A stretch of 18,844 nucleotides of DNA. Origin: a bacterium. Its GTDB lineage: Bacteria > Zhuqueibacterota > Zhuqueibacteria > Oceanimicrobiales > Oceanimicrobiaceae. Location of the stretch: assembly GCA_046757025.1 (NCBI GenBank), contig JBHHXN010000099.1:1-18844 (forward strand), written 5' to 3'. Under the pieces are notes generated by a model that had not been told where the DNA came from, made no database searches, and was given only the letters and a program-made list of their open reading frames with translations. This document shows, piece by piece, positions 1-15,968 of this stretch; the first letter of the stretch is position 1; the number at the start of each line of letters is the position of its first letter. The translations under genes were made by a program, and so were the position numbers.

Positions 1-1660
1 CCTGCAAATACACCCGCCTCAACTTCACATCCACGTAAAACAAATCCTCTGCTACTTTGAATTCATCAGGGTGAATGTCGCCGAGCTCGGTTGTCTGCCA
101 GGAGTGAGTCGGATAAATAAATTCAAATTTACCTCTGGAAGTTGTGACTTTAATCGGCATTTTAAAATCGGCGACGTCTGCCTTCCATCGGTAACGGGCG
201 GTTACTTTGTTTCCTTTTTTGGTTACTGTAATTTCCAGTTCAGGTATGTTTATATTTTTTAAGTATTGCTCGAACAAATAACTAAAATCTTTGCCGGTTT
301 TTAAATTCACAAATTCAACAATATCGTTTGTGGTGATGGTTTGATACTTAAACTCTGAGGCAATGCCATGAATTACTTCAAACCACAAGCTGTCATTATC
401 GATGACATGGCGCAGGGTATTGAGAAAGAGCGAACCTTTTGGATACATGTCGCCCGATCCCTGGTGATTGACGTCGTAGGTGCCAATGATGGGCCGGTCG
501 TTTCGGACGTCCTGTTTCTTGCCATTCTGGTATTGGAGTCCGGCTTCATACCCGTGAATGCATTCCACATAGAGCGCTTCGCTGTAGGCCCCAAAGCTTT
601 CATGAATCCACATATCGGCGATGTCTTTTGAGGTTACGCTGTTGCCCCACCATTCGTGCGCGCTCTCGTGAATGATGATAAAATCAAACGTGATCCCCAC
701 TTCAGATGACCCTTTGCCTTTGTAACCGTATCGAAACTTATTTCCATACGCAATTGCCGTCTGGTGCTCCATACCCAGGTGCGGCGATTCAACCATTTTG
801 TACCCGTCTTTGTAAAATGGAAATTTTCCAAAGAGCTTCTCAAAACAGGCCAGCATCGGCTTGACCTCTTGAAACTGTTTTTTCGCTTTATCGAGATTGT
901 AGGGCATGACATAGTAATCAAGGGTGAGGGTATCGCCATCTTCGTTGACATAAATATCATCAAAATGGGCATACTTTCCGATGTTGAGCGTGACATTGTA
1001 ATTGTTGATTGGGTAGCTCATGAACCAGTCCCAGCGCGTCCAGCCCTCGGGTAACTCAGTTTTTTTCCTAAGGCGGCCGTTCGAAATATTCATGAGACCC
1101 TCTGGAACCGTGACGCTCAGCAGCATACTATCTGGTTCATCGGACTGGTGCTCTTTATTGGGCCACCAGAGATAAGCGCCGTCTCCTTGAACCGTAACAG
1201 CCACCCAGGGGTTGTTGTTTTCATCCTTCGACCAGACAAAGCCGCCGTCCCAGGGAGGTCTTGAGGCTTTTTGCGGCTTGCCGGAATAAAAGACCCGAAT
1301 AGAATGTAGATTGCCAGTTTCAAATTTCTCCGGAAATTGAACAAACACAGCGCCGTGTTCCCGCTCATATGACAGGGATTTGTCACCAAACATGATTTTG
1401 TCGATTTTCATTTTCTCAACTAAATCGATCTGCATTTTATCAAAATTGGAGACCACTTTAAATTGGATAGTGTTGCTGCCCGCTATAGTCTTTGTTTCCG
1501 GATCGACTTTGACATCGAGATGATAATAAGTAACATCATAACAGGTTCGCAAAGACGTCAGCATGCCGCGCAGCGTATCCGCTCTGGTAAAAGTCTGCGC
1601 AAAAATAAACTTGGCGCTCGCAAGAAACAGGAACATAAGGTAAATTTGTTTTGCTCTCAT
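1..1660 (-). CDS. Secreted M1 family zinc aminopeptidase, 3'-partial (runs off the window edge; at least 553 aa)
   Basis: Absent from the ORF track because there is no stop inside the window. Hand translation from ATG at 1660 (AGGA upstream) gives MRAKQIYLMFLFLASAKFIFAQTFTRADTLRG, a signal peptide. It contains LGMEHQ (GxMEN-type motif, ~770-790) and HESAH-x18-E (HESAHEWWGNSVTSKDIADMWIHE, HESAH at 656-670). The frame stays open to base 2. Confidence 0.92.
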   Translation of the reverse strand, partial: MRAKQIYLMFLFLASAKFIFAQTFTRADTLRGMLTSLRTCYDVTYYHLDVKVDPETKTIAGSNTIQFKVVSNFDKMQIDLVEKMKIDKIMFGDKSLSYEREHGAVFVQFPEKFETGNLHSIRVFYSGKPQKASRPPWDGGFVWSKDENNNPWVAVTVQGDGAYLWWPNKEHQSDEPDSMLLSVTVPEGLMNISNGRLRKKTELPEGWTRWDWFMSYPINNYNVTLNIGKYAHFDDIYVNEDGDTLTLDYYVMPYNLDKAKKQFQEVKPMLACFEKLFGKFPFYKDGYKMVESPHLGMEHQTAIAYGNKFRYGYKGKGSSEVGITFDFIIIHESAHEWWGNSVTSKDIADMWIHESFGAYSEALYVECIHGYEAGLQYQNGKKQDVRNDRPIIGTYDVNHQGSGDMYPKGSLFLNTLRHVIDNDSLWFEVIHGIASEFKYQTITTNDIVEFVNLKTGKDFSYLFEQYLKNINIPELEITVTKKGNKVTARYRWKADVADFKMPIKVTTSRGKFEFIYPTHSWQTTELGDIHPDEFKVAEDLFYVDVKLRRVYLQ

Positions 1661-1696: not shown

Positions 1697-2746
1697 TTAG
1701 CGGTCGCCGTCAGCAAGCAAAGAACGGGTTGCCACTGCTAATACAGGGTCGCTGCTTCGCTCACTTTTTGAACTATCTACAAAAATATCAGGAGGGATGC
1801 CCATACCCTCATAGGACAGTCCATCGGCGGCGAAAACTATTTGTGGTGTCAAGGAATAAAACCAGCCATTGGGCAGCTCTTTACCAATTTTTTCTCCATG
1901 CGCCCCGGAGGTTGTGTCACCCATGGTTCTGACATGGGGCAGCACCTTAAAAGCGAGCACCGTTCTTTCAGCGGCACTGACGGTATAACGATCCGTGAGA
2001 ACAACAACAGGACCTGCATATTGAGCATTACCTTTAGGTTCTATGTACCAATTAACTCTGGGTGCAAAGTCATTGGGCCCTGGTCCGCTCTTCGCTTTCG
2101 AGCTAAAAGCAAGCCTTCTTTGATCGGCAAACCTGGATGCAAACAAAAGGCCGTTGCGAAAATCACCACCGAAATTATGTCTTAAATCGATGATAACCCC
2201 TATGATTTCGAAGTTTTTCATAAACTCTAAAATACCATCGAGCACAGAAGGTTCTAATGTCTCAAAATGTTCAATGTGCAGATAACCAAGGTTATTGCTA
2301 CCTTCAATTGAACCTTTAATAACTCCAAAGGTAAAGGGGCCGGAGACGACAAAGTCATTTTGGAGATAAATCGTAGTAATTTTTTCTAAGTCGAAAAAAG
2401 GGTCACCAATCCTCAATCTAATAATTCTGTTCGCATTCCAAAGCTCTCGGCGTGGCGCAGTTAACGTTACGTGCGCGTCATCTAATTTTGCAAGCATTTG
2501 GGTGAAAATTTGGTAAAGCTCCTTGTTGCTTATATAGTCGTTGACTCGCGGTCGAAACGTCTCGAACACCTGAGCCCAATCGGTATTTCTCTGCTCAAAA
2601 GGTCCATATTGGTCCTTAAACGTGGTCCACAGGACCATGAAATTTTCTACCTGTGAATCGGCTGGTTCGTTCTCAAAGAACATATTTTCACAGCCGAAGG
2701 CTACAAAAGCGCTGAGCCAAAGGACGATAATCGTTTTCCCGAGCAT
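1697..2746 (-). CDS. S41 family peptidase lipoprotein (Tricorn C1-like helical domain plus S41 domain, no obvious PDZ)
   Basis: Lipobox-like VAFG-C19. S41 motifs IIDLRHNFGG, TVSAAE (catalytic Ser), GDTTSGA and EGMGIPPD. The N-terminal ENF..LW...Y..F..RN.DW segment and L.D.HV are typical of the Tricorn C1-like domain. Confidence 0.9.
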   Translation of the reverse strand: MLGKTIIVLWLSAFVAFGCENMFFENEPADSQVENFMVLWTTFKDQYGPFEQRNTDWAQVFETFRPRVNDYISNKELYQIFTQMLAKLDDAHVTLTAPRRELWNANRIIRLRIGDPFFDLEKITTIYLQNDFVVSGPFTFGVIKGSIEGSNNLGYLHIEHFETLEPSVLDGILEFMKNFEIIGVIIDLRHNFGGDFRNGLLFASRFADQRRLAFSSKAKSGPGPNDFAPRVNWYIEPKGNAQYAGPVVVLTDRYTVSAAERTVLAFKVLPHVRTMGDTTSGAHGEKIGKELPNGWFYSLTPQIVFAADGLSYEGMGIPPDIFVDSSKSERSSDPVLAVATRSLLADGDR

Positions 2747-2749
2747 GAT

Positions 2750-3562
2750 TTAAAAATTATATACAAAACCGATTTCAAAGCTGTTTCTGAGTATCGCGGC
2801 TTTCAAGAAATTAGTAGATTTCAGATACTCAAATTGATAGGCCAACAACAGTTGTGTGACGGAGGATAAGAATCTCCTATAAAAAATACGCGCATGGATG
2901 TCTAGAAAGTCGGTGAAGACTGCAAGCTCACCATTTTTAGTTACGTGTATAAAATCGGAAAATGCCTTTAACCGCTCTTCATCGGAAATTGCAAAAGTGG
3001 AGCGCGCAACCCAGGCCACCAGCGGAAAACCCGTCTCAATGTTCAAAGATTGGGTTGGGGACAATTTAAGGGTTCCTCGTGTCCACGCTGACAATGAGTA
3101 CGCGACAACAGTGCCATTGTTTTTAACCGGGCCAAAGTGGTACTCCAAATAATTGAAATCGCCCTCAAGAAATCCACCAACAAGAATTTCGGTTTTATCC
3201 TTTCGGAAAATGTTTTTGCCAAAAAGATAGTGAAGACGAATCGTCAGGGCTTCACTGTTTGAAGTCTCGTGTGGTTCACCTGAAATGAAATAAGAAAATT
3301 GATCTGATGCTCGAACATCTATCTGACTCAATGCAAATCCCACCCGGTGCAAGCCGTTTTTGGTTCTGCGCTCGTAGAATAACTCTCCCATTAGCAAAGA
3401 ATTGCCGCGATAAATTAAGGGGGATAAGATCAGATCCTGGCTGCGATAATCCTGCGGCCCCCAGCTTAGTCCAAATGCATTTTGGTGGTCGGCTGGTGGT
3501 TGGGAGAATGCGGGAACGTTAATGAATAAAATTACAAACACAAGAATACGGCAATGCAGCAT
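2750..3562 (-). CDS. Exported protein, probable outer-membrane beta-barrel of unknown function
   Basis: Signal peptide (MLHCRILVFVILFINVPAFS), alternating amphipathic aromatic-rich strands, and a C-terminal beta-signal ending FEIGFVYNF. Its stop is only 3 nt from the S41 start codon. Confidence 0.7.
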   Translation of the reverse strand: MLHCRILVFVILFINVPAFSQPPADHQNAFGLSWGPQDYRSQDLILSPLIYRGNSLLMGELFYERRTKNGLHRVGFALSQIDVRASDQFSYFISGEPHETSNSEALTIRLHYLFGKNIFRKDKTEILVGGFLEGDFNYLEYHFGPVKNNGTVVAYSLSAWTRGTLKLSPTQSLNIETGFPLVAWVARSTFAISDEERLKAFSDFIHVTKNGELAVFTDFLDIHARIFYRRFLSSVTQLLLAYQFEYLKSTNFLKAAILRNSFEIGFVYNF

Positions 3563-3613: not shown

Positions 3614-6600
3614 CTAAATCGCCTGTTCAAATCCAAACACCCAACGAAAATGAAAATCTTTTTCATCAGGTAAAGACTTGCTCACCCAAAATGGGAAGTC
3701 CAGGCGAATGGTCAGGTTACGGCCGCCAGTGAAAATCGTGTACCAGTTATCCGGCAGCCGTGTTTGAAAGCGGACGCCCACGCCGGCGTCCGCGAAGATA
3801 TCTTCATTGGAACCTACTAAACCCATGGCGGCAATATCTGCAAAACCGACAAGAGCAGTGCTGCGGAGAAACGAGCTAAGGAACCCGAGCCGAAATTTCG
3901 GCTTCAACTGTTTTCGGACTTCAGCATTTACAGCAAAAAGCTCATCTCCGATTATAGGTTGATTATAATACCCGCGGAGATTGCCGCCACCCGGCAAGTG
4001 ATAGTGCAATCCGTTGGGAAGCGCGCCCTGACTTCGGAGGTAAAAGCGTTTGAAGCGGTCGCGGGGATTGGCGCCGTCAAGAAAAATCAGGTCTTGAATG
4101 GGCGCATCTTTTGAATCGAGAATTTTCTTGCCAAAAAATCTGACAAAGATGCCATCTTTGTTTTTAGGAAACCAAAATTTCAACTCGGTAAAAACAGTAT
4201 TATAATTAAAGTCGCTGCCCCAGTCTTTTTGCGCCGAATCAAATCCAAAGGATAGATTTGTAAACCAATTAAAACCTCGCGGATTCAGCGAATAGCGAAC
4301 AGAAGCCTTATTGACAATCCCAACCTGCCAGGTGGATATAGTTGTACCATCAAATTCTCTTTGGGAATAAAGCTCCCGCCTTCCGCTCAACTGCCGTGAA
4401 TGATTAAAGCCCACTTGGATTCGATGCTGCGGCGGAACGCTCAAATTTTGACTCTTAATGAAACTGAGATATGAATCAATTTCGAAGCGGCCTTCCATTT
4501 TCTGAACCATCACCACCCCCTGCGTCCTGCCGCCTAATGGCTTGATTTGACCGGAATATCTGAATTGGTAATCCAGTTCTTGCGAGTCGGTACCGTACCA
4601 CAGACCTAATTCTGCATTTCTTTGCGAGCCCTGCCAGCCTTTAAGCCTTCCGCCTATTCGCGTCTTATCAACTTTGTTATACCAGCCACTGGGCCGCCAG
4701 GTAATTAGAAGTGCATCTCGGGGACGAAACGACATATTCGGATATTCAAATTGAAAAATCGCTCTTAAAGGACCGTTGTTGAAGCGCGAGTTTTCCAAAA
4801 TGGCATCTTCGGGATCAAGAGTAACTTCTTTGGGTTGGCTTTTGGTCAGGAAGGTTACCTTGCCAACTTTTTCAAAACCGTCCCATCTTTTTAAATGGCT
4901 TTCGCCGGTTTTCGTCGTGAGTTGTACATCCACAGGCATGGTGCCGTTATCTTTCTTTATGATGTGCACGTCCGTCTGCCAGAGAGAATCGACTTTGCGT
5001 TTTTCCACTTTGCCTAAACTGTAATCGACGGTCATGGTTTTGTCCAGCCACTGATCAAAAAACCATTGCAAATCCATGCCGCTGACATCCTCACAAACTT
5101 TCTGGAAGCGGGCTCTGTTCACATGTTTGAATTTCCAGCGGCTAAAATATTCATGACAAATTTTTTTGAAAATCTCATCCCCGACCACATATCTGAGCAT
5201 GTCGTAAAAAAAAGCGCCTTTCGTGTAGGCATTAATGCTGTATCCCGCCCCATCCAAAAAGGTGTGTGCAGGTTTCGAAATCGGCTCGTTGTGTCCGGAG
5301 TTCATGTAAAAAAGCGCCGTATCCCGATTGCGCCCTCGACTGGTTCTTGCCGGACGGTGCTTTTGCAGCCAATTCGCACGTTTCAAGCTCGCCTGTCGGT
5401 CAAATCCCCACTTCCCGTAGCGACTCTCCATGTACCAGCGGGTTTGAAATGAAGTAAAGCCTTCATCTAACCAGGCTTCTTTCCATTCGTTGTTGCCCAG
5501 AATTCCGAAGAAATAAATATGCCCCACTTCGTGCAGAATCAAGCTCTCCCTTTCCGAGCTGTTCATGACCAGCATGGGGTACTCCATGCCGCCTCTCAAA
5601 AGTCCGTGCGTGACAGTCAACTGCGGATAGGGGTAGCGGCCGAATTTCTCAGAGAGCCATTCCAAAGCTCTGGCGGATCGTTTGGGAACTGTTCTGCTCC
5701 ACCGGCTTTTTACGCCTGACCGATAGAGAACGTGGATCGGAATGCCGTCCCATTCACCCGATTCGTACAAAAAATCTGGACAGGTCAACCAGGCAAAATC
5801 ATGAACGTTTTCGGCTCGAAATCTTACTTTTCTTTGACTGCCTCGTTTTGACTGTTCGCGCATGTCAGATTTGATTTTTTTGAATCGCTCAAGCCATTCT
5901 GTATTCGACAAAGATGTATCCACACGAACCAAATCCCAGCCGGGATCCCCCGCCACCAATTTACCAGTTGCGCCCACGATATATTCGAAGGGCACGTTGA
6001 TCGTGACGTCGAAAGTACCGAATTCGCCGTAAAATTCGCCAGTATAATGGAAAGGTTCGGCATTCCAGCCGTTTTCGTCGTAAACGCAAACTTTGGGGTA
6101 CCATTGGGCAAAGTCGTATTGAGTTCCTCGATAGCCGGCCCGCCCTGCAAATTTTCTAACCTTCAAATAAAAAGAAAGCTCAACAGTCAAATTGCCGCCC
6201 GGAGGCAAAGGCTCAGGCAAATCGGCTTCTAAAATGGTATCGTCGACTTTAAAAGCACTCAGCGACCTCTCCTGCTGGCCGCTGTTCTTATTGATAATCC
6301 GAAAAAATTCAATTTGAATATAGCCGGCGTCCTTTATGTCTGAAAGAAGTTTGCGGTAGTATTGACTTGCCTCTTTTGCATGAATGGTGTTGTTGTTGCG
6401 ATAGGCATTTGGGTAGAGATGAAGGTAGAATTTCCTCAGTGTGTCAGGCGAATTATTTGTGTATTGAATTGTTTCTCGACCGGAAAGGGCGTGTTCAGCA
6501 GGCAGCAAAGTAACATCCATCGTATAATGAACCAATTGCTGCCAGTATTTTTCGTTAGCATGGAGATCTGCAAAAAAGAGTAAACTCAGGATGGAAATGT

Positions 6601-6619
6601 AAATGCGCATTGAATTCAT
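3614..6619 (-). CDS. M1 family metallopeptidase fused to a C-terminal Omp85/BamA-like beta-barrel
   Basis: Signal peptide, GGMEYP, and HEVGH-x18-E (HEVGH at 5519-5533). The C-terminal ~360 aa carry Omp85-type motifs SDFNY, GGGNLRGY, NAEVR, FAD, DAGVGVR and IRLDF, ending WVFGFEQAI. RBS GAGGGG precedes ATG 6619; an alternative ATG lies at 6610. Confidence 0.88.
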   Translation of the reverse strand: MNSMRIYISILSLLFFADLHANEKYWQQLVHYTMDVTLLPAEHALSGRETIQYTNNSPDTLRKFYLHLYPNAYRNNNTIHAKEASQYYRKLLSDIKDAGYIQIEFFRIINKNSGQQERSLSAFKVDDTILEADLPEPLPPGGNLTVELSFYLKVRKFAGRAGYRGTQYDFAQWYPKVCVYDENGWNAEPFHYTGEFYGEFGTFDVTINVPFEYIVGATGKLVAGDPGWDLVRVDTSLSNTEWLERFKKIKSDMREQSKRGSQRKVRFRAENVHDFAWLTCPDFLYESGEWDGIPIHVLYRSGVKSRWSRTVPKRSARALEWLSEKFGRYPYPQLTVTHGLLRGGMEYPMLVMNSSERESLILHEVGHIYFFGILGNNEWKEAWLDEGFTSFQTRWYMESRYGKWGFDRQASLKRANWLQKHRPARTSRGRNRDTALFYMNSGHNEPISKPAHTFLDGAGYSINAYTKGAFFYDMLRYVVGDEIFKKICHEYFSRWKFKHVNRARFQKVCEDVSGMDLQWFFDQWLDKTMTVDYSLGKVEKRKVDSLWQTDVHIIKKDNGTMPVDVQLTTKTGESHLKRWDGFEKVGKVTFLTKSQPKEVTLDPEDAILENSRFNNGPLRAIFQFEYPNMSFRPRDALLITWRPSGWYNKVDKTRIGGRLKGWQGSQRNAELGLWYGTDSQELDYQFRYSGQIKPLGGRTQGVVMVQKMEGRFEIDSYLSFIKSQNLSVPPQHRIQVGFNHSRQLSGRRELYSQREFDGTTISTWQVGIVNKASVRYSLNPRGFNWFTNLSFGFDSAQKDWGSDFNYNTVFTELKFWFPKNKDGIFVRFFGKKILDSKDAPIQDLIFLDGANPRDRFKRFYLRSQGALPNGLHYHLPGGGNLRGYYNQPIIGDELFAVNAEVRKQLKPKFRLGFLSSFLRSTALVGFADIAAMGLVGSNEDIFADAGVGVRFQTRLPDNWYTIFTGGRNLTIRLDFPFWVSKSLPDEKDFHFRWVFGFEQAI

Positions 6620-6993: not shown

Positions 6994-7158
6994 ATGATTA
7001 AGGTTTCAGCAACAAAGTTGCGCAAACACCTGTTTGACTATCTGGACAGAGCGGCAGCAGGCGAGACGATTGTTATCCAGCGCAATAACGAGGAAGTTGC
7101 ACGGCTGCCGATAAGGTGGAGTTTGATGCGGCCGTCTGCACTCAGCTTATGGTTCTGA
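6994..7158 (+). pseudogene. Truncated Phd/YefM-family antitoxin (N-terminal DNA-binding domain only)
   Basis: RBS GAGGA (6984-6988) then ATG 6994: MIKVSATKLRKHLFDYLDRAAAGETIVIQRNNEEVARL, a typical Phd/YefM N-terminus. Similarity stops at ~7107, and the rest is an out-of-frame read into transposase DNA. No toxin gene follows. Confidence 0.8.
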
Positions 7159-7706
7159 ATCGCTGCGTTGACCCGATGAGTAAGCTTGCGCTCTCCGAAT
7201 GGCAGAAGACGGTGTATTTCGAAGGCCAGAAGTCATTTGACTATCACCAGATTCTGCGACCGTTAGATTATTTGGAGAAGATCCGGGATGAATTAGAAGG
7301 CGTTCTTTTTGAGAAGCAATTGGATCTTTTTCATCAAAGCGTTGACCTGGTATTTTTTGATGTCACTTCCACCTACTTTGAGGGCGAGGGGCCAGAGATG
7401 GCCGAGAGAGGCCACTCTCGAGACGGCAAGCCTGAGAACAATCAGATCATTCTGGCGTTAGCCATCACCAAAAGCGGCTTAACCATTGGTCATGAGATTT
7501 ACGAAAGGGGCCGCAAAGATTCTCAAACGGTGGTTGAGATGCTTCAGCGGCTCAAATCGCGCTTTCAGATTGACCAATGTATTTTTGTCGGTGATCGCGG
7601 CATGGTCAGTGCGGATAATATCGCTGAGTTAGAACGTATGAACTATGAATATATCTTTGCGCTTCGCAAACGCCGCCTCAGAGAATCCGCTGAGGTGCTT
7701 GAATAA
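7108..7706 (+). pseudogene. Internal fragment of an IS1634-family DDE transposase
   Basis: Motifs MVLNR..DP.SKL, LVFFDVTSTYFEG, GHSRDGKP, Q.ILAL, and IFVGDRGM. Only about 200 aa, against roughly 500-600 aa for the family. The N-terminus and the third catalytic residue region are missing, and I found no terminal inverted repeats. Confidence 0.85.
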
Positions 7707-7762: not shown

Positions 7763-10700
7763 CTATTTCAACAATGTCATTTTCCTGGTTTTTACAAACT
7801 CTCCTGCAATCATCCGAATGAAGTATATCCCAGATCCTACTAGCATACCTTGGCCATTGGTTCCATCCCATTCTATAGTATAATGTCCTCCCTCCTGTTT
7901 TTTGTCTAATAGTGTTCTCACTCTTTGCCCCAAGATATTGTAAATCCCCATTTGAACTTGAGTTAGCTTAGGCAATGTGTACTGGATTGTTGTTGTCGGA
8001 TTGAAGGGATTCGGGTAGTTGTGAGATAGAGAATATGTTTCTGGTAATAGGGACTCGTCTCCATCAGCTATCCCCGTGGCAAACCCTTCTGTGATATTCA
8101 AGGTACTGTCTATTGGCGCACTCGTCAAAACTTCCACGAGGCCGGATGGCCAGCGCACGACAATAGAATCAATTTGGATGGCCTTGCCTAATCCAAACGA
8201 GATCGGCAAACTGCTTTGTGAATGATAAGCCGGATTGTTGCCATCTGCTTCTCTAATCTGCACCAAATCACCCGCCACAACCTTGAGTCGGGTGCCTAAC
8301 CCTTCCTTATTGCTGCGGGTACCCGATAAACGAACCTTTAGCCAGTGGTTGCTGTTTCGGTTATTTCTGTTAAGGAGATTAAGGCCGCGACTATTTGCTA
8401 CAAAGATATCCAGGAAACCGTCGTTGTTGTAATCCCAGAATCCTCCACCAGGGGAGAAGGACGGCTCCTGAACGTTGGCCAATTCGCCAATCTCCGTAAA
8501 TGTCCAGGCCGGAGGTCCATTGTTTCGATAGAGCGCATTTTCCGGATTGGGGTGCTGCCCACTGTTGGCGACGAAAATATCCAGGTAGCCGTCATTATTG
8601 TAGTCTCCAAACATGGAAAGCGTACCATCTCCAGTGTCGCCGACTTCTGCTTGATCAGTTACATCGGTGAAATCCCAGTCCGGGGGACCGTTGTTTTTCA
8701 GCAGGACGTTGGCATGTTTGGATTGAAATCTGCCGCGAATGATGTAAATGTCCAAGTAACCATCGTTGTTGTAGTCGCCGAATACGGCTCCTCGACAGCG
8801 GTTACCAAAGTTGGCTCCGGCCTGAGGAGCGACGTCAGTGAATGTTCCATCGTCGTTGTTGCGATAAAGCAGGTTATTCCCAGTGTAGGTTGTAACATAA
8901 ATGTCGGAGTCTCCGTCGTTGTCGTAATCACCGAAAATACATCCATGGCTCGTGCCGTTATAGCCCACACCCGCACTCTCTGTCATATCGGTGAATTCCC
9001 AGTTTGGTGGACCATTGTTCTTGTACAGCACATTTGGCGAATTCCAATTAGCCAGATACAGGTCGAGGTAACCGTCGTTATCAATGTCGCCGAAGGCAAA
9101 ACCGTTAACGCTTCCCTGATTCACAAAACCTGAGTTATCCGAAACATCCAAAAACGTTCCGTCCCGTTGATTCTCTAACAGTACCTTCAATCCGGAATTT
9201 GCTAAGAACAGATCAGGAAAGCCGTCATTATTGTAATCAATGAAAGCTGGGCCACCTCCGGTGCTGTCATTGCTCACCCCTGCCTGTGTCGTTACATCGG
9301 TGAAGCTGAAGCTCTGAGATCCTGAGTTTTGATATAGGTGATTACTGCCGTTGTTATAAACATAAATATCCAAGTCTTTGTCATTATCATAGTCGGCCAT
9401 GGCAAAACCGTTTGTTTCGCTAAGATCATCCAGACCGGAATTCACTGCGATGTCGGTGAATGTACTGGTTTCTTCCTCAGTGATTTGAATGAATTGGTCG
9501 CTTTGAACGGTTGTTAAGGTATTGACCAGCCCACCTGGCCATCGGACAACCAGACTATCTATTTGCTCAATAGTACCTAACCCAAATGAAACTGCCAAAC
9601 CGTTGTGTGACCCGGTGCCGCCACTCACTTCCCGGACCTGCGTTCCAGATGCAGTTGAAATCATAACACGGGCCCCGACAGCACTTCGGTTGCTTTTGGT
9701 ACCAACAAGCTTGACTGCAAGCCAATGATTATTGTTTCCATTGTTGCTGTAGAAAACATTCCGATTGCTTGACCTGGCAACATAAATGTCGATATCGCCA
9801 TCCTGGTCGTAGTCCGCCAACGCACATTTCGTGTCGTCGCCGGTATTTCCAACATCAGATGCTATGGAGATATTTTCAAAGGTTCCATCGCCATTATTAC
9901 GATAGAGAATGTTTGCTGAGGAAGGATTGGAATTGACGATATATAGGTCTAAATACCGATCATTATCAGCGTCACCCCATTTTGCCGACTTTGCGTTTTC
10001 ACCACTACCCACGAGACCTGCCGATTCAGCAACGTTCGCAAAAAATCCGGCACCGTTATTCTCATAGAGCTGGCTGGCTGAAGAATCGGCAATAAAAATA
10101 TCAAAAAAGCCATCATTGTTATAATCCCCGACTCCAACGCTGACACCGCTAGCGTTGGACAACCCGACCGCTGATGTGGCATCAGAAAAGGCACCATCGC
10201 CGTTGTTTCGTAGATACTTATTTTCCTTACTTTGGGCACTTGTGACCACCAGGTCCAAGTCTCCGTCATTATCAAAATCCGCAAACGCACTTTCACGGCC
10301 GTCAACGATGATATTTAGACCCACTGAATCCGAAACTTCAGTAAAGGTGCCGTCGCCATCGTTTTCAAAAAACAGACATGAGTTGGGACTGACTTGACTG
10401 ACAAACAGGTCCAAGTCGCCATCATTATCGGTATCTGCAAAGGAAGCACCAAAACATTCCTCGATTTCCCCTAGCCCTGCTGAGCCAGACACATCAGAAA
10501 ACGTTCCATCACGGTTATTTCGATATAGCTGCCGCGCAAATAGATCGGTATATCCATCACTATCATAATCGCCCCAGATGGCTACGCGGGAGCTTGCTGT
10601 TATGCCGGCAGTGGTTGAAAGATCGGAAAAAGTGCCGTCCTGATTATTCTGATAGAGCTTGTTGGTACCTGATGGTACTGCAACAAAGAGGTCGGGATAA

Positions 10701-13700
10701 TCATCATTGTTGAAGTCACCGAAAGCAACAGAAACCCCGTCCTGTGAATCGTCCGTGCCTGATAGGGTTCCGTTGTCTGAAAACGTGGGTGCTGTCCCCG
10801 AGATGACGAATAGCTCTTGACTGTTGTAGCTTTCAATCGTGTCTCTCACCGAACGGACAACATAATAACCTTGCAGATAATTTCCAACGTAGTATTGGTT
10901 CAAAGACAATGGCGCGCTATTCAACTTTTTGTACGGCCCCCCAGTGCTGCCTGCTCGATAGACATTATACTGGCCAAGATAATTGTGGTGCCATCTCAGG
11001 TATTGCGCGCTATTAGACGCTTTCATTTCTTCAGTACGGATTGTTCCTGACGTTTTACTGGCCATTGCAAGAATACTCGAGCCTTGTGTCTGACCTGTCT
11101 GGAAAATCGGAGCTGGCAAATTCGCTCCGCCCCAGATACCCATGTCATTTCTGAGACCACCTTTTGCTGGAGACAAAGCGAAGCCTGGGTTGTTTGGGTC
11201 TTCCAGATCATTAAACTCAGTGGCAGGATCCCCTGCATCGATACAAACAGAACCAGAGTTCAGTTCGAAGTCATGCACAGAAACGGTTGGTGCGGCTGCT
11301 GGATTCTTGAAATCTGGAAAGCCGTTATCCAGATTTCCTCCTGTATTAATACACCGCTCGCAGAGCGGAAAGCCGAGAAGGTTATTATATCCTACTTCCA
11401 CCCGGGCAGTTGAGCTGGCCTCACTATGAACGGGCGTTCTGTAAGTACCGCTGCTCAAGATATTGTTCTTAACCAACACCAGAGTGCTTTCCCACTGTGG
11501 GAGAAAAGTATCCTCAAATATTGGATAACCAGTTGCAGAGGTCCATCGCGGTAAAATCACATTATTGACAATTTGCGCCCTGCTGTTGCTGGAGCGAATC
11601 CCATGCTTGCCGTAGTCCAATATCAAATTGTTGTTGATTTCTACATTACTGCGGACAATGCTAATTCCTGTTTCGATATCATAAATTACGTTCCCACTAA
11701 CGGTTGGAAAAGACCTTTCAATATAGATACCGGTGGTCCCTTCACTCCCTTTATGAATGACGTTGTTGACCAGGTTGGTATTTCGTCCAAATATCACGTG
11801 GATGCCAGTTAATGCAAAATCTGAGATTTCACAACTGTCTACCTGAATCGGTTGAGGTTTATTCGCAAATCCGTTATACTCGATGCTTCTACCGGCATAT
11901 TCTATCTTGCAGTGTCTCAAGATGCTGCCGCTACTTGAAGGATTGATGATAATACCAGTCCAATCGCTGGCGGTTGGCGAAGTACTGCTAGAGGTAAAAA
12001 CGATAGGAGCGTCTTTGGTGCCAACAGCTTTCAGGGTACCGTTTACTCTAATTTTTATTTTATTTAGCGGGTGACCTGTTTTAGGCTCAGCTTTAATGGT
12101 GGTGCCAGGTTCAATGACAAGTATCTCAGATTTATCGACAACATAGTCCGTGGTCAGGTTGATCGTTCCAGACCATCTCCTTACTTTCGGAACAGCGAGA
12201 CCGTGGTTGTTGGTGTTCCATGAGTCGTGTTGAGACTGTCCCCAAGCTGTTTTGTCTCTATCATACGGCGTATCGAGATCCCAGACAAAGATGCCCCCTG
12301 ACGTGGTCCCTGAAGCAATTTCAATATCACCATCACCATCGAGGTCCAGCAAAACAGGGGTAGTCAAAGACATGTTGACAGCTCTCTTCGGAAATCCGTT
12401 GACCACGCTGCCGTCATGATTCCAGGCAGATATCCGCTCCTGGCGATCCGCGGCCACGACCTCACTGACTCCATCTCCATCCACATCGCCGATCAGCGGT
12501 GTTCCTCTGATCGAGAATTGCATGGGCCAACCAGAAAGCAGGCTGCCATCATGGTGCCAGAGGTACATGCGATCATACTCATTGACAGCAATTTCCACAT
12601 CACCGTCCCCATCCACGTCGCCCACTGCCGGAATGCTGCCCCACATATCTTTCTGAGTTGATTGCGGCCAGCCTGCGCCAAATGGTTGGGCATTGTGATG
12701 AAAGATATAAAAAGTCTTCTCTGCGCCAACGGCGATTTCCAGGTTGCCGAAATTATCGAAGTCAGCCAGAGTCGGGGCTGCGCTGAGCTGGCTATTGAAC
12801 GTTAGCGGCCAACCAGAAAAGTCGGCTCCATCCCCATCTAAAACCTTGAGAAGAGATGAATTCTGCCAGACACTGGCGATAACTTCAACATCACCATCAT
12901 TATCCAGATCGCCGAGCGCGATACCGTCCCACAGCGTTGTTGACGGGAACTTGGATTGAATCGGCCACCCGTTAACTGCGTCGCCAGTGTGGTGAAATGC
13001 CTCAATGCTACTCCACGTACTCACTACGATTTCCAGATCGCCATCATTGTCTAAATCACCGACGGTAGGAGTTCCTGGGATATCGGGCACAAACTGCGGC
13101 CAGTTTCCTGAAAATGGTTGGCCATCACCTTTGAAGACATAGAGTCGGTATCTTTGTGATCGATCATCTTCTGTTCCACTCACAATGATTTCCAAATCAC
13201 CATTGAAATCAAGATCTGCCAGAGCAACAGGTCTCAGAACATAATCGCCGGGTAGAATTATCGGCCAACCATTGACCACTGAGCCATCGTGGTGCCGTGC
13301 ATGGATGGCTCCGTTTACACCCACAAAGCCATCACTGACAATTTCGATATCTCCGTCTCCGTCGATATCGCCGAACTTTAGGGATTCATTTATTCCGCCT
13401 TGTTGAAATACTGGCCAGCCAGCCTGCATTTGCCGCTCTAGATAGACATGTACAATGTCCATAGCAACGCCGTTAGCGTCGAAGACAGAGAGCCTTATTT
13501 GGTACAACCCTGATTCTAGTTGCGTGTTGTCCCAATTAACCAGTGTGCCCTGATTGACCGATGTTCCTGAACCAATTTCTATCCAGTTCAACGGCATGGA
13601 GGTTCCGCCAGCATATTCGACTTTGTAAGACTCGCCAACAGCGGTGCCTGTGATGTCGATCGGTCCAAACAAAGCAGTGTTTACCTGGGGGAACTGAATC

Positions 13701-15181
13701 TGCGCTACCGCTGTGCTTGACAACTGGAGCTGCAAAGCCGCCAGCACATTGATCCGGCCGCTGCCAATAGGAAAATCCGACCTTATTGGCTCTGCGGAAT
13801 ATTTTATGACATCATAAATGTCGTCAACCGAATAGTCAGGGTAAAGTGAAACGATAAGCGCCGCCAGGCCGCTAACTAATGGTGCCGATGAACTTGTACC
13901 GGAAGCAAAGGCATAGCTGCTATTCAAGTCGGTAGAGTAGATGTTTGTTCCTGGGGCGGCAACATCCACCCAATCTCCATAGTTCGAAAAGCCAGCTCTG
14001 TTGTCCGCTTCATCGGTAGCTGCCACGGACAGAACCTTGGCCAGTGCGGCCGGATAGACTGCAAAGGCGCTGTTTTCATTACCTGCGGCTCCGACCAGGA
14101 CAACTCCCAAAGAATAGGCATAATCAACAGCGCTCGCGTAGGTCAGTCCCCCTCCTCCTCGAAAGCTCATGTTCACAACAGAAGCGCCGTTATCGGCCGC
14201 ATACTCGAGAGCGCGGCTTGCAGCGCTCGTAACGATCGCTCCTCTAGGGTTCGGGGGTGGCGTCTTGTACCCTACTCTCAGCGACATGATCTTGCAGTTC
14301 CAGGCCAGACCCGCGATTCCGATGCCATTATCTGTTGCAGCAGCGGCAATCCCGGAGACAAATGTTCCATGCCCGTGGAGGCTTCTGGGATCGTTGTCCT
14401 CTGGTCCCGGATCTTCACCTGGAAATACCGAACCTGCCGGAATGTTCAGGAAGTCCCATCCTCTAATATCATCGACATAGCCATTGCTATCGTCGTCAAC
14501 ACCGTTATCTGGTATTTCATCAATATTGTGCCATATTTTTGAAGCCAGATCAGGATGCATCCAGTCTACGCCCGTATCAATGATGCCAATGGCCACATTG
14601 AAAGCGCCCTTTTCTATGTCCCAACCTTCAGTAGCTCTGATTTTTTCGAGGCCCCACTGCTGTGTAAAATCGGGATCGTTTGGCACGATTTCCTGGACGT
14701 AGAAGATGTAATTCGGCTCAGCATACTCAACAGCGGGGTCTTTCTGGTATTCTCGGACAATAGAAAGGACATCCACATCTGGACTAAATCTGATTTTGTA
14801 AATGTTTGAAAGGTTTGGAACTTTTACCCTTTTGCCTTTAACCGTAATCATGCCATAGACATCTGGCTTCACAGCAGTCTTGAATACTTTTTCCATTTCG
14901 ATAGCGTTAAGGCGAGCATTTAGTGCATCAATCATCGAATCAGTCGTCTTAATCGTGCCCCCTACTTTTTGCAGGCGGATATTAACATCGTCCTTGAACT
15001 TTACCAATATTTCTCCCGGGACAAACTCCGGATTATCTGGATCATGTCTAACAGGTTCCTCCCCTGTTCTAAAGCCTGGGGATACCGCATGGTTGTTGAA
15101 TACAAAAATGAAGAGCAGTAGAGTCAAAAATGCAGCTAAGGCTTTTCCCGCTCTTTTTCGAAAAAATTTCTTTAGTCTCAT
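7763..15181 (-). CDS. Large secreted S8 (subtilisin-like) serine protease with FG-GAP repeats, right-handed beta-helix, two VCBS/ASPIC-UnbV (CRTAC1-like) modules and a T9SS-type/FlgD-Ig C-terminal domain
   Basis: RBS AGGAGG. Signal or anchor sequence, then a propeptide (VPGEILVKFK...VEYAEPNY). Catalytic triad D202 (IIDTG), H271 (HGHGT), S430 (SGTSSSAP) and oxyanion motif AAGN. DxDxDG-GWP repeats at ~12200-13420 and beta-helix at ~11430-12170. Two GDYDNDG repeat blocks each end in NHWL.V.L.G..SN...G.R...FGLG...IDS.VVRWP.G. The C-terminus reads NYPNPFNPTT...WDG...SGIYF...RKMTLLK. Confidence 0.92.
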   Translation of the reverse strand: MRLKKFFRKRAGKALAAFLTLLLFIFVFNNHAVSPGFRTGEEPVRHDPDNPEFVPGEILVKFKDDVNIRLQKVGGTIKTTDSMIDALNARLNAIEMEKVFKTAVKPDVYGMITVKGKRVKVPNLSNIYKIRFSPDVDVLSIVREYQKDPAVEYAEPNYIFYVQEIVPNDPDFTQQWGLEKIRATEGWDIEKGAFNVAIGIIDTGVDWMHPDLASKIWHNIDEIPDNGVDDDSNGYVDDIRGWDFLNIPAGSVFPGEDPGPEDNDPRSLHGHGTFVSGIAAAATDNGIGIAGLAWNCKIMSLRVGYKTPPPNPRGAIVTSAASRALEYAADNGASVVNMSFRGGGGLTYASAVDYAYSLGVVLVGAAGNENSAFAVYPAALAKVLSVAATDEADNRAGFSNYGDWVDVAAPGTNIYSTDLNSSYAFASGTSSSAPLVSGLAALIVSLYPDYSVDDIYDVIKYSAEPIRSDFPIGSGRINVLAALQLQLSSTAVAQIQFPQVNTALFGPIDITGTAVGESYKVEYAGGTSMPLNWIEIGSGTSVNQGTLVNWDNTQLESGLYQIRLSVFDANGVAMDIVHVYLERQMQAGWPVFQQGGINESLKFGDIDGDGDIEIVSDGFVGVNGAIHARHHDGSVVNGWPIILPGDYVLRPVALADLDFNGDLEIIVSGTEDDRSQRYRLYVFKGDGQPFSGNWPQFVPDIPGTPTVGDLDNDGDLEIVVSTWSSIEAFHHTGDAVNGWPIQSKFPSTTLWDGIALGDLDNDGDVEVIASVWQNSSLLKVLDGDGADFSGWPLTFNSQLSAAPTLADFDNFGNLEIAVGAEKTFYIFHHNAQPFGAGWPQSTQKDMWGSIPAVGDVDGDGDVEIAVNEYDRMYLWHHDGSLLSGWPMQFSIRGTPLIGDVDGDGVSEVVAADRQERISAWNHDGSVVNGFPKRAVNMSLTTPVLLDLDGDGDIEIASGTTSGGIFVWDLDTPYDRDKTAWGQSQHDSWNTNNHGLAVPKVRRWSGTINLTTDYVVDKSEILVIEPGTTIKAEPKTGHPLNKIKIRVNGTLKAVGTKDAPIVFTSSSTSPTASDWTGIIINPSSSGSILRHCKIEYAGRSIEYNGFANKPQPIQVDSCEISDFALTGIHVIFGRNTNLVNNVIHKGSEGTTGIYIERSFPTVSGNVIYDIETGISIVRSNVEINNNLILDYGKHGIRSSNSRAQIVNNVILPRWTSATGYPIFEDTFLPQWESTLVLVKNNILSSGTYRTPVHSEASSTARVEVGYNNLLGFPLCERCINTGGNLDNGFPDFKNPAAAPTVSVHDFELNSGSVCIDAGDPATEFNDLEDPNNPGFALSPAKGGLRNDMGIWGGANLPAPIFQTGQTQGSSILAMASKTSGTIRTEEMKASNSAQYLRWHHNYLGQYNVYRAGSTGGPYKKLNSAPLSLNQYYVGNYLQGYYVVRSVRDTIESYNSQELFVISGTAPTFSDNGTLSGTDDSQDGVSVAFGDFNNDDYPDLFVAVPSGTNKLYQNNQDGTFSDLSTTAGITASSRVAIWGDYDSDGYTDLFARQLYRNNRDGTFSDVSGSAGLGEIEECFGASFADTDNDGDLDLFVSQVSPNSCLFFENDGDGTFTEVSDSVGLNIIVDGRESAFADFDNDGDLDLVVTSAQSKENKYLRNNGDGAFSDATSAVGLSNASGVSVGVGDYNNDGFFDIFIADSSASQLYENNGAGFFANVAESAGLVGSGENAKSAKWGDADNDRYLDLYIVNSNPSSANILYRNNGDGTFENISIASDVGNTGDDTKCALADYDQDGDIDIYVARSSNRNVFYSNNGNNNHWLAVKLVGTKSNRSAVGARVMISTASGTQVREVSGGTGSHNGLAVSFGLGTIEQIDSLVVRWPGGLVNTLTTVQSDQFIQITEEETSTFTDIAVNSGLDDLSETNGFAMADYDNDKDLDIYVYNNGSNHLYQNSGSQSFSFTDVTTQAGVSNDSTGGGPAFIDYNNDGFPDLFLANSGLKVLLENQRDGTFLDVSDNSGFVNQGSVNGFAFGDIDNDGYLDLYLANWNSPNVLYKNNGPPNWEFTDMTESAGVGYNGTSHGCIFGDYDNDGDSDIYVTTYTGNNLLYRNNDDGTFTDVAPQAGANFGNRCRGAVFGDYNNDGYLDIYIIRGRFQSKHANVLLKNNGPPDWDFTDVTDQAEVGDTGDGTLSMFGDYNNDGYLDIFVANSGQHPNPENALYRNNGPPAWTFTEIGELANVQEPSFSPGGGFWDYNNDGFLDIFVANSRGLNLLNRNNRNSNHWLKVRLSGTRSNKEGLGTRLKVVAGDLVQIREADGNNPAYHSQSSLPISFGLGKAIQIDSIVVRWPSGLVEVLTSAPIDSTLNITEGFATGIADGDESLLPETYSLSHNYPNPFNPTTTIQYTLPKLTQVQMGIYNILGQRVRTLLDKKQEGGHYTIEWDGTNGQGMLVGSGIYFIRMIAGEFVKTRKMTLLK

Positions 15182-15401: not shown

Positions 15402-15938
15402 CTACTTCAGCAATGTGAGCTTTCTGGTTTGCACAAACCCCTCTGCCTGGATTCGATAAAAATAAATTCCGCTCGCCAGGCCTTTGGCCTTGAAATCGAC
15501 TTTATATTCTCCTGGCTGGAATTCTTCATCAACCAGGGTTGCTATTTCCCTCCCCAGCACGTCGTAAAGCTTAAGGCTTACTCTTGAGCGCTTTGGCACC
15601 GCAAATTGGATGACCGTTGTGGGATTAAATGGATTTGGATAATTCTGGTCCAGCCGAAACTCTTTCGGGAGTAGCGGCGATGCGATTTGCTCCACGCTGG
15701 TGATGATGTCGATATTCTGGAACCAGATGCCGCTTTGCAAAAGAATTGAGGCACCGCCTATTGTCCCTACAAAGGTCTGACCAACTGTGCCGTAGATCCG
15801 ATTGCTGCTGTTGGACACTACGGTGCCGCCGCTGCCAAAGACGCTGTTTTTGATTTTATTTTGCGCCGCTACTTGTGTGGGAAGGCACACGCCCCACAAA
15901 ACCAGCACAAGCAGAACATTTCTTATCGTGCTTTTCAT
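15402..15938 (-). CDS. Small exported protein with a T9SS type A-like C-terminal sorting domain
   Basis: RBS AAGGAG. Signal peptide ending VAA-Q, a short domain of ~50 aa (SVFGSGG...GTVGQ...LQSGIW), then ITSVE..LPKEFRLDQNYPNPFNP...LASGIYFYRI...TRKLTLLK. Confidence 0.88.
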   Translation of the reverse strand: MKSTIRNVLLVLVLWGVCLPTQVAAQNKIKNSVFGSGGTVVSNSSNRIYGTVGQTFVGTIGGASILLQSGIWFQNIDIITSVEQIASPLLPKEFRLDQNYPNPFNPTTVIQFAVPKRSRVSLKLYDVLGREIATLVDEEFQPGEYKVDFKAKGLASGIYFYRIQAEGFVQTRKLTLLK

Positions 15939-15968
15939 TTTTGTGCTCCTCTTATTGCACCCAATTGT

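Follow-up and report, generated by a model that had tools for sequence, protein, structure and literature searches.

A conserved, apparently undescribed fusion of an M1 aminopeptidase to a POTRA-less Omp85-type barrel, with the enzyme predicted to lie on the periplasmic face of the outer membrane

Enzymes joined to outer-membrane barrels of the Omp85 type have been described in several forms, and these are the closest known systems to the gene analyzed here, which lies in an 18,844-nucleotide stretch of DNA (the window; the complete contig JBHHXN010000099.1 of assembly GCA_046757025.1) from a bacterium of the family Oceanimicrobiaceae (Zhuqueibacterota) and encodes an M1 aminopeptidase fused directly to a C-terminal barrel. 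The nearest published precedent, of different architecture, is the WD40-like Omp85 subfamily (Heinz & Lithgow 2014, PMC4104836, Table S3), which likewise combines a POTRA-less barrel with an N-terminal gluzincin domain, and for most members of which Table S3 gives 1z5h (tricorn factor F3), 4kxd, 3qnf or 4ar1 as "best aminopeptidase hit". These proteins have an MA-type catalytic domain of ~200 residues and a beta-propeller before the barrel, whereas in the fusion a full M1 enzyme with the motif GGMEYP is joined directly. An earlier note on this DNA, made from the letters alone, had cited PlpD and omitted this nearer precedent with its M1-structure matches.

PlpD/FplA (patatin-POTRA-Omp85, "type Vd"; PMC11116518) resembles the fusion in carrying a hydrolase on a 16-strand Omp85 barrel. 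PlpD, which the earlier note had cited as a precedent, is the sole enzyme-Omp85 fusion tested, and its enzyme domain proved to remain in the periplasm instead of being secreted (PMC11116518), as is predicted for the enzyme here. It differs in being a phospholipase with one POTRA that forms a homodimer with a strand-swapping lid, whereas the fusion would be a zinc exopeptidase and has no POTRA. The "Metallo" subfamily, called metalloprotease-Omp85 and also without POTRA, has been proposed to act in periplasmic quality control; it carries PF00149 instead of PF01433 and a further domain before the barrel (PMC4104836), and PF00149 gave no Pfam match on the fusion protein.

WD40-plus-peptidase and metalloprotease Omp85 subfamilies are also mentioned in PMC11358297. 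The 10 subfamilies of the published Omp85 classification include none with the present layout in the available text, and PF01433 is absent from the searched supplements of that paper (PMC4104836). The available parts of PMC12611786, PMC13067283 and bioRxiv 10.1101/2025.10.16.682753 contain nothing on an M1-Omp85 fusion. We found no published description or characterization of such a fusion in a literature search that left subscription journals largely outside. The fusion is a real, conserved and apparently undescribed Omp85 subfamily of the known enzyme-Omp85 kind.

Fold of the barrel and of the enzyme

A single uninterrupted open frame of 1001 codons (6619-3614, reverse strand) encodes a protein of 1001 residues with a signal peptide, M1 domains I-III, a 21-residue linker and the barrel, in that order (Table 1). 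An AlphaFold2 model was built from a 76-row alignment, taken from 150 family rows for diversity and to a size limit, and reached a predicted local distance difference test score (pLDDT) of 94.4 and a predicted template modelling score of 0.92 over the whole two-part chain; a single-sequence model (pLDDT 33.8) was discarded. In the model, the C-terminal part was confirmed as a POTRA-less Omp85-type barrel with 16 predicted amphipathic strands between residues 637 and 997 (DSSP), most with clear alternating hydrophobicity. In structure comparison with VIA, of which the wide search covered 48,161 PDB representatives, the barrel matched BamA of D. radiodurans (8xnb) at Z 20.0 (root-mean-square deviation, rmsd, 3.9; 292 aligned), TamA at Z 19.4-19.7, Sam50 at 19.1-19.7 and FhaC at 18.6 (FhaC/CdiB together 16-19), versus Z 13.2 for the best non-Omp85 barrel.

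These results bear out the earlier note, which had placed a POTRA-less Omp85-type barrel from ~4700 onward: the predicted barrel starts at residue 637 (position 4711), LRGY lies exactly at 3968-3979, and FAD (within FADIA), GVGVR (residues 946-950) and IRLDF (971-975) follow in the claimed order. A soluble or ERAP1-like helical C-terminus, its stated alternative, was not seen. Foldseek followed by VIA re-scoring was set aside as a barrel test, its lists being filled by M1 matches, and sequence and profile searches of PDB chains returned M1 enzymes or chance matches and no barrel.

The relationship was also visible in profile comparisons. A deep barrel profile from the 150 family rows, run against the 5914 open reading frames of the same genome, ranked three family members first and then 14 Omp85-type proteins (ranks 4-17), 13 of which are matches to the Omp85 family PF01103; the fourteenth, C55, resembles a second WD40-Omp85 by eye. 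Alignment of the barrel with the genome's Omp85 barrels by hhalign gave a probability of 97.9% and E 6e-13 (96.8% in a shallower first attempt). Given this ranking and the hhalign result, the relation to Omp85 is not due to chance. Two observations weigh against the barrel call: PF01103 gave no match above cut-off on the fusion protein, and the genome's BamA (C9) and patatin-type Omp85 (C13) fell outside the top 30 of the profile search, so that sequence gives the barrel no special closeness to BamA. PF01103 matched 2 of 42 relatives at E up to 1, and the relative P0041 scored above cut-off at E 1.2e-6. A language-model atlas returned clusters without a name, together with one in which 38% of the members carry PF01103. 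Pfam misses the subfamily because the barrel scores under its cut-off, and named relatives are labelled M1 peptidase or hypothetical protein; the closest of them are annotated as KSB1 "M1 family metallopeptidase".

The same genome encodes a WD40-Omp85 (C11) with Peptidase_MA_2, PD40 and a barrel. PD40 has no Pfam match in the fusion protein, nor is there room for it between M1 and barrel, and BLASTP of the fusion against this protein matched only the barrel end (E 0.01). Since the barrel profile gave E values of 7e-4 and 0.045 for WD40-type barrels and of 6e-11 and 2e-7 for other Omp85 barrels, the WD40-type barrels are no nearer than the others.

BamA, TamA, Sam50 and FhaC share with the fusion the barrel fold (Z 16-20), the RGY of loop 6 (L6) and the FxDxG of strand 13. 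The lid-lock of Omp85 barrels is defined as RG(F/Y/W) in loop 6 together with FxDxG in strand 13 (PMC11358297), and both are present, as NLRGY (residues 880-884) and FADIA. Conservation over the 150 rows is high (R882 in 140, G883 in 145, F926 in 149, D928 in 145); residue 930 is Gly in 106 and Ala, as here, in 42. Unlike those proteins, the fusion has no POTRA, falls under the PF01103 cut-off, and has a loop 6 of 55 residues with a family-specific extension (RSxG, with R862 in 133 of 150 rows), while L1, L2, L3 and L7 have only 2-5 residues. No POTRA was matched by Pfam on the fusion protein, and the span from N615 to P643 is so short in all rows (27-35 residues in 132/150, 17-45 overall) that there is no room for one.

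On the enzyme side, the Pfam scan returned solely Peptidase_M1 (PF01433; E 1.1e-18, residues 354-524), and NCBIfam gave weak matches to aminopeptidase N and LTA4H, far under cut-off. Domain I, the catalytic domain II and the linker domain III are all present in the model, and they superpose on the four-domain M1 enzymes F3, PepN, ERAP1, IRAP and PSA (Z 27-33, rmsd 2.6-3.7; for tricorn factor F3, Z 32.6, rmsd 2.6 and 452 aligned). The best Foldseek matches of the model were IRAP, ERAP1 and PSA, over 620-670 columns at E 1e-24 to 1e-21. The M1 motifs reported earlier, GGMEYP and HEVGH-x18-E, are intact at their given positions, and the catalytic Tyr, whose role is established M1 chemistry, is also present (Y465). 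The complete set E346, H363, E364, H367, E386 and Y465 is found here and in 138 of the 150 family rows, with the zinc site kept at H363 in 141, E364 in 140, H367 in 140 and E386 in 144. The GXMEN motif of other M1 enzymes reads GGMEYP, its Glu retained in 138/150 rows and Tyr standing in place of Asn in 132/150. In M1 enzymes this Glu binds the free amino group of the substrate (PMC10343166), and by analogy E346 would do so here.

Four-domain M1 enzymes have a helical domain IV after domain III, which closes over the active site (PMC10343166). The fusion retains their HEXXH-18-E, motif Glu and Tyr, but residues 637-1001 form the membrane barrel in the model instead of domain IV, with domain III immediately upstream of it; by comparison with the domain limits of PSA, the barrel thus stands at domain IV's usual place in the chain. 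In 27 of 50 rows of the VIA re-scoring, the M1 alignment extended to model residues 724-729, in the periplasmic turn T3, opposite late domain IV. Because alignment ranges are given as first and last residues only, the extension hints only weakly that the barrel would also occupy the lid's place in space. The predicted contact of T3 with residues 455-459 lies just ahead of the Y465 helix.

Conservation and distribution of the fusion

In the survey across genomes that the earlier note had suggested, the barrel query matched 77 of the phylum's 167 genomes (46/105 of the near-complete ones) and 19 of 20 others of the family, and relatives occur in several other phyla. The barrel-profile search, limited to scoring the top 7997 candidates, found 95 proteins of 679-2000 residues, every one of which carries PF01433. 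An assembly chimera was ruled out because the layout is identical in these 95 of 95 long matches. A library clustered at 50% identity gave 586 matches at E ≤0.001; among the 150 of these that were listed, 62 have at least 900 residues, and 52 of the 62 contain HEXXH-x18-E. A GTDB scan with the M1-side motif matched at least 606 stretches, and the 80 that were kept came from records of Fidelibacterota/Marinimicrobia, Gemmatimonadota, Krumholzibacteriota, Latescibacterota, Calditrichota and Bacteroidota, including cultured Hymenobacter, whose members are divergent. These data point to a further, widespread Omp85 subfamily beyond the 10 of the published classification (PMC4104836). The genome itself contains a 60% identical paralogue (C70) and another, C129, cut by a contig end.

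Of the 74 rows whose 3' end is closed (70 loci and 4 from this genome), 63 have a tail long enough for the barrel (barrel-profile E from 1e-125 to ~1), and 11 are barrel-less members of the same M1 subfamily, some of them probably frameshifted. A FastTree of the M1 parts of these rows requires 6 changes between barrel and no barrel, and yields no conclusion on gain or loss because it is unrooted, the length of the tail decided what counted as "barrel", and frameshifts probably account for some of the "no-barrel" rows. Invariant columns dominated a mutual-information covariation analysis of 245 rows, which was uninformative on domain contacts.

The family also includes proteins in which the enzyme is altered or missing. 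At least one catalytic residue is lacking in 12 of the 150 rows, and the lid-lock is mostly kept in these (R882 in 10 of 12, D928 in 11 of 12). Ten proteins picked by eye among the 150 listed matches have the same barrel motifs without HEXXH, and nearly all of them retain the loop-6 extension; none of the ten has an Omp85 Pfam match. Five are stand-alone proteins of signal peptide plus barrel with 403-417 residues (P0211, P0227, P0230, P0240 and P0246), and the other five (P0197, P0198, P0235, P0244 and P0248) have 615-661 residues with an N-terminal part without Pfam name, which may, judged by eye, be a decayed M1 remnant. Atlas clusters of stand-alone barrels were commonest in Balneolota. 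These sequences indicate that some relatives use the barrel as more than an anchor, and the natural inactive and barrel-only forms offer ready comparisons.

When 22 loci were compared, the commonest neighbour occurred in no more than 7, so the fusion is regarded as a one-gene unit. Neither a transporter nor a TonB partner is conserved across these loci, and the same holds for genes of TamB, Bam or TpsA type. In close relatives, peptidase genes often lie nearby. The 270-residue protein and S41 peptidase encoded downstream were rejected as a dedicated partner system, since they occur in 1 of the 22 loci, that of the window itself.

Side of the membrane and candidate functions

To place the M1 region relative to the membrane, two predictions were available. 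When the full-length model was compared by VIA, 8 of 18 Omp85/TpsB rows began their alignment at model residues 379-444, in the catalytic domain, opposite residues N-terminal to the target barrel; the TamA examples began at TamA 199 and 229, and barrel-only TamA constructs begin at 264 and 272. Since these alignments start N-terminal to the target barrels, the catalytic domain overlies, in the model, the position of the POTRA, which is periplasmic and precedes the barrel (PMC11116518). In a linker-free prediction with two chains (23-617 and 628-1001), the score was 0.64 and that of the best of 3 controls 0.00; the mark for this score is reached by 116/157 solved complexes and 2/215 mismatched pairs, counts that are only rough for a run with its own alignment. 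Contacts agreed by at least 86% between runs, with partner pLDDT of at least 82. All 22 confident barrel-side contacts fell in the residues that precede or open strand 1, in those that close strand 2 or in periplasmic turns T1-T4, and none in the outer loops L1-L8; T3 was predicted to touch the enzyme at 438-443, 455-459 and 86-88. Among the predicted contacts are those of residue 88 with 781-783 and of 441-443 with 726. The M1 region therefore likely lies, by prediction, on the periplasmic face of the outer membrane.

The fusion is probably a periplasmic aminopeptidase anchored in the outer membrane, in which the barrel forms a roof over the catalytic domain and, as predicted by the model, replaces the helical lid of ordinary M1 enzymes. 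The protein would be exported through Sec and its signal peptide cleaved, as its N-terminus suggests; a lipobox-like pattern occurs there in 0 of 150 family rows. The cell's own β-barrel assembly machinery, with the separate five-POTRA BamA of this genome, would insert the barrel, and the M1 region is predicted in both models to stay periplasmic and dock on turns T1-T4. Loop 6, whose motifs are present, would lock onto strand 13 and likely shut the barrel to the outside, which would leave the barrel mouth as the roof of a substrate chamber. The zinc site, for which the catalytic residues are present in the sequence, would then trim N-terminal residues off peptides that had entered the periplasm in other ways, most probably to serve nutrition or the turnover of envelope peptides. 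If so, Omp85 barrels would appear to have been reused as scaffolds for periplasmic hydrolases, and a membrane barrel could replace the domain IV lid of an M1 enzyme.

Several points weigh against the picture of a periplasmic enzyme on an anchoring barrel. The topology evidence is prediction throughout, and the two predictions are not independent because they share the 76-row alignment. The two docked chains come from a single protein, of which each is one half, and such pairs reach the mark more readily; no solved M1-barrel complex was found in sequence, profile and structure searches of the PDB. The interface is only moderately conserved (L726 in 62/150 rows), and the POTRA and domain IV overlaps may amount to just a few residues. 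The rows without a catalytic residue and the ten barrel proteins without HEXXH also speak against the barrel as a mere anchor. Because such inactive and enzyme-less relatives keep the barrel, and nearly all of the latter its loop-6 extension, a channel and a quality-control role both have to be weighed.

As a channel, the Omp85 barrel would have been recruited as both lid and entry gate: extracellular peptides would pass the loop-6 gate into a chamber formed by barrel mouth and catalytic domain and be trimmed there, so that uptake and cleavage form one step. The predicted periplasmic geometry fits this equally. The shortness of L1, L2, L3 and L7 means that L4 and L6 would have to provide the cover, and retention of the L6 extension even in stand-alone barrels suggests a function in the lumen. 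FhaC and CdiB, which are channels, are among the VIA matches, and peptidase genes often adjoin the fusion in close relatives. We nevertheless regard the channel as unlikely, with the lid-lock residues almost invariant, BamA- and TamA-type barrels described as closed to the outside (PMC4104836) and no conserved transporter or TonB partner in the 22 loci. The earlier note's alternative of a pore capped by a periplasmic peptidase fits this geometry, but an open pore is made doubtful by a loop 6 of 55 residues with a conserved lid-lock. If the entry gate were real, an Omp85 protein would serve small-solute nutrition, not protein assembly or secretion, across several phyla.

In envelope quality control or assembly, for which we see a slim chance, an insertase-like lateral seam would be kept and the M1 domain would trim the N-termini of client or stalled outer-membrane proteins. 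The short last strand is as in insertases, the predicted M1 contacts leave the T5-T7 side free, the inactive and M1-less relatives imply that the barrel can matter without catalysis, and such a role has been proposed for other peptidase-Omp85 fusions (PMC4104836). The protein has, however, no POTRA; the genome possesses its own five-POTRA BamA among 17 PF01103 matches; the patchy presence in near-complete genomes, with up to three copies here, is unlike a core assembly factor; and an exopeptidase would be a poor tool for clearing stalled barrels.

That the barrel exports its own M1 passenger and displays it on the cell surface in the manner of a type Vd autotransporter, as the headline of the earlier note had it, is very improbable: the layout of signal peptide, enzyme and C-terminal barrel, a 21-residue linker that could in principle cross the membrane and the barrel-less members showing that the enzyme part can stand alone would allow it, but both models put the M1 region in the periplasm, no confident contact falls in the outer loops, the catalytic domain overlies the POTRA position, the lid-lock is intact, and the type Vd prototype was itself shown to be periplasmic, export of a folded 31 kDa domain being argued to be unfavourable (PMC11116518), while the passenger here has ~595 residues.

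Coordinates and surroundings of the gene

The features of the fusion gene are collected in Table 1. A look-up of RNA sequencing runs listed none. Neither a promoter scan (10 matches versus 8.9 expected by chance) nor a terminator scan (7 versus 7.4) gave an excess over chance.

Table 1 Coordinates of the features of the fusion gene in the window
Feature	Position	Strand	Basis
Predicted Sec signal peptide, residues 1-21	6557..6619	-	Sequence; helix 2-19 in model; putative cleavage site
M1 aminopeptidase domains I-III, residues 22-615, helical domain IV absent	4775..6556	-	PF01433, Foldseek, VIA
GGMEYP, residues 343-348, variant GXMEN exopeptidase motif	5576..5593	-	Sequence; E346 conservation
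Zinc site HEVGH-x18-E, residues 363-386 (H363, E364, H367, E386)	5462..5533	-	Sequence, conservation
Catalytic Tyr465	5225..5227	-	Y in 141/150 rows
Linker, 21 residues (616-636), one short strand (620-624), without POTRA	4712..4774	-	Model, family alignment
Predicted 16-stranded Omp85-type barrel, residues 637-1001, short last strand (988-997)	3617..4711	-	DSSP, alternating hydrophobicity, VIA
Periplasmic turn T3 (724-730), predicted main docking point	4430..4450	-	Contact pairs from two-chain prediction
Extended extracellular loop 6, 55 residues, family motif GAxP..RSxG and lid-lock NLRGY	3953..4117	-	Model; conservation
LRGY, residues 881-884	3968-3979	-	Sequence
Strand-13 lid-lock partner FADIA, residues 926-930 (family consensus FxDxG)	3830..3844	-	Conservation

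Just upstream of the fusion, an IS1634-family transposase fragment (NF033559, E 1e-49, profile 71-249 of 483) is encoded at 7116-7706 on the forward strand. A gene for a PDZ protein lies near the fusion in 7 related loci, where the window has the transposase fragment, and the window thus looks rearranged upstream of the fusion. Positions 1697-3562 (reverse strand), which separate the fusion from the next M1 gene, encode the 270-residue protein, which has no Pfam match, ends in Phe and is possibly a small outer-membrane barrel, and the S41 peptidase, with a lipoprotein-like N-terminus. At 2-1660 (reverse strand) lies a second, barrel-less M1 aminopeptidase gene of 553 residues that reaches the contig end; a similar M1 gene of ~555 residues follows the fusion in 5 relatives.

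Further upstream, the reverse strand encodes at 7763-15181 a secreted subtilase of 2472 residues with FG-GAP repeats, two ASPIC/UnbV domains and a FlgD/Por-type C-terminal tail, and at 15402-18524 an 851-residue protein with a C-terminal Peptidase_S74 chaperone domain, then a 178-residue protein with a Por-type tail.

Beyond the window, the Omp85 set of this genome is unusually large, with its PF01103 matches and at least 4 Omp85-type genes missed by Pfam (three M1 fusions and the WD40-type C55). A POTRA-less protein of 423 residues (L052:100-1371; G000:C2) matches PF01103 and DUF5686 (E 8e-7, under cut-off), a sequence hint that DUF5686 barrels may be related to Omp85.

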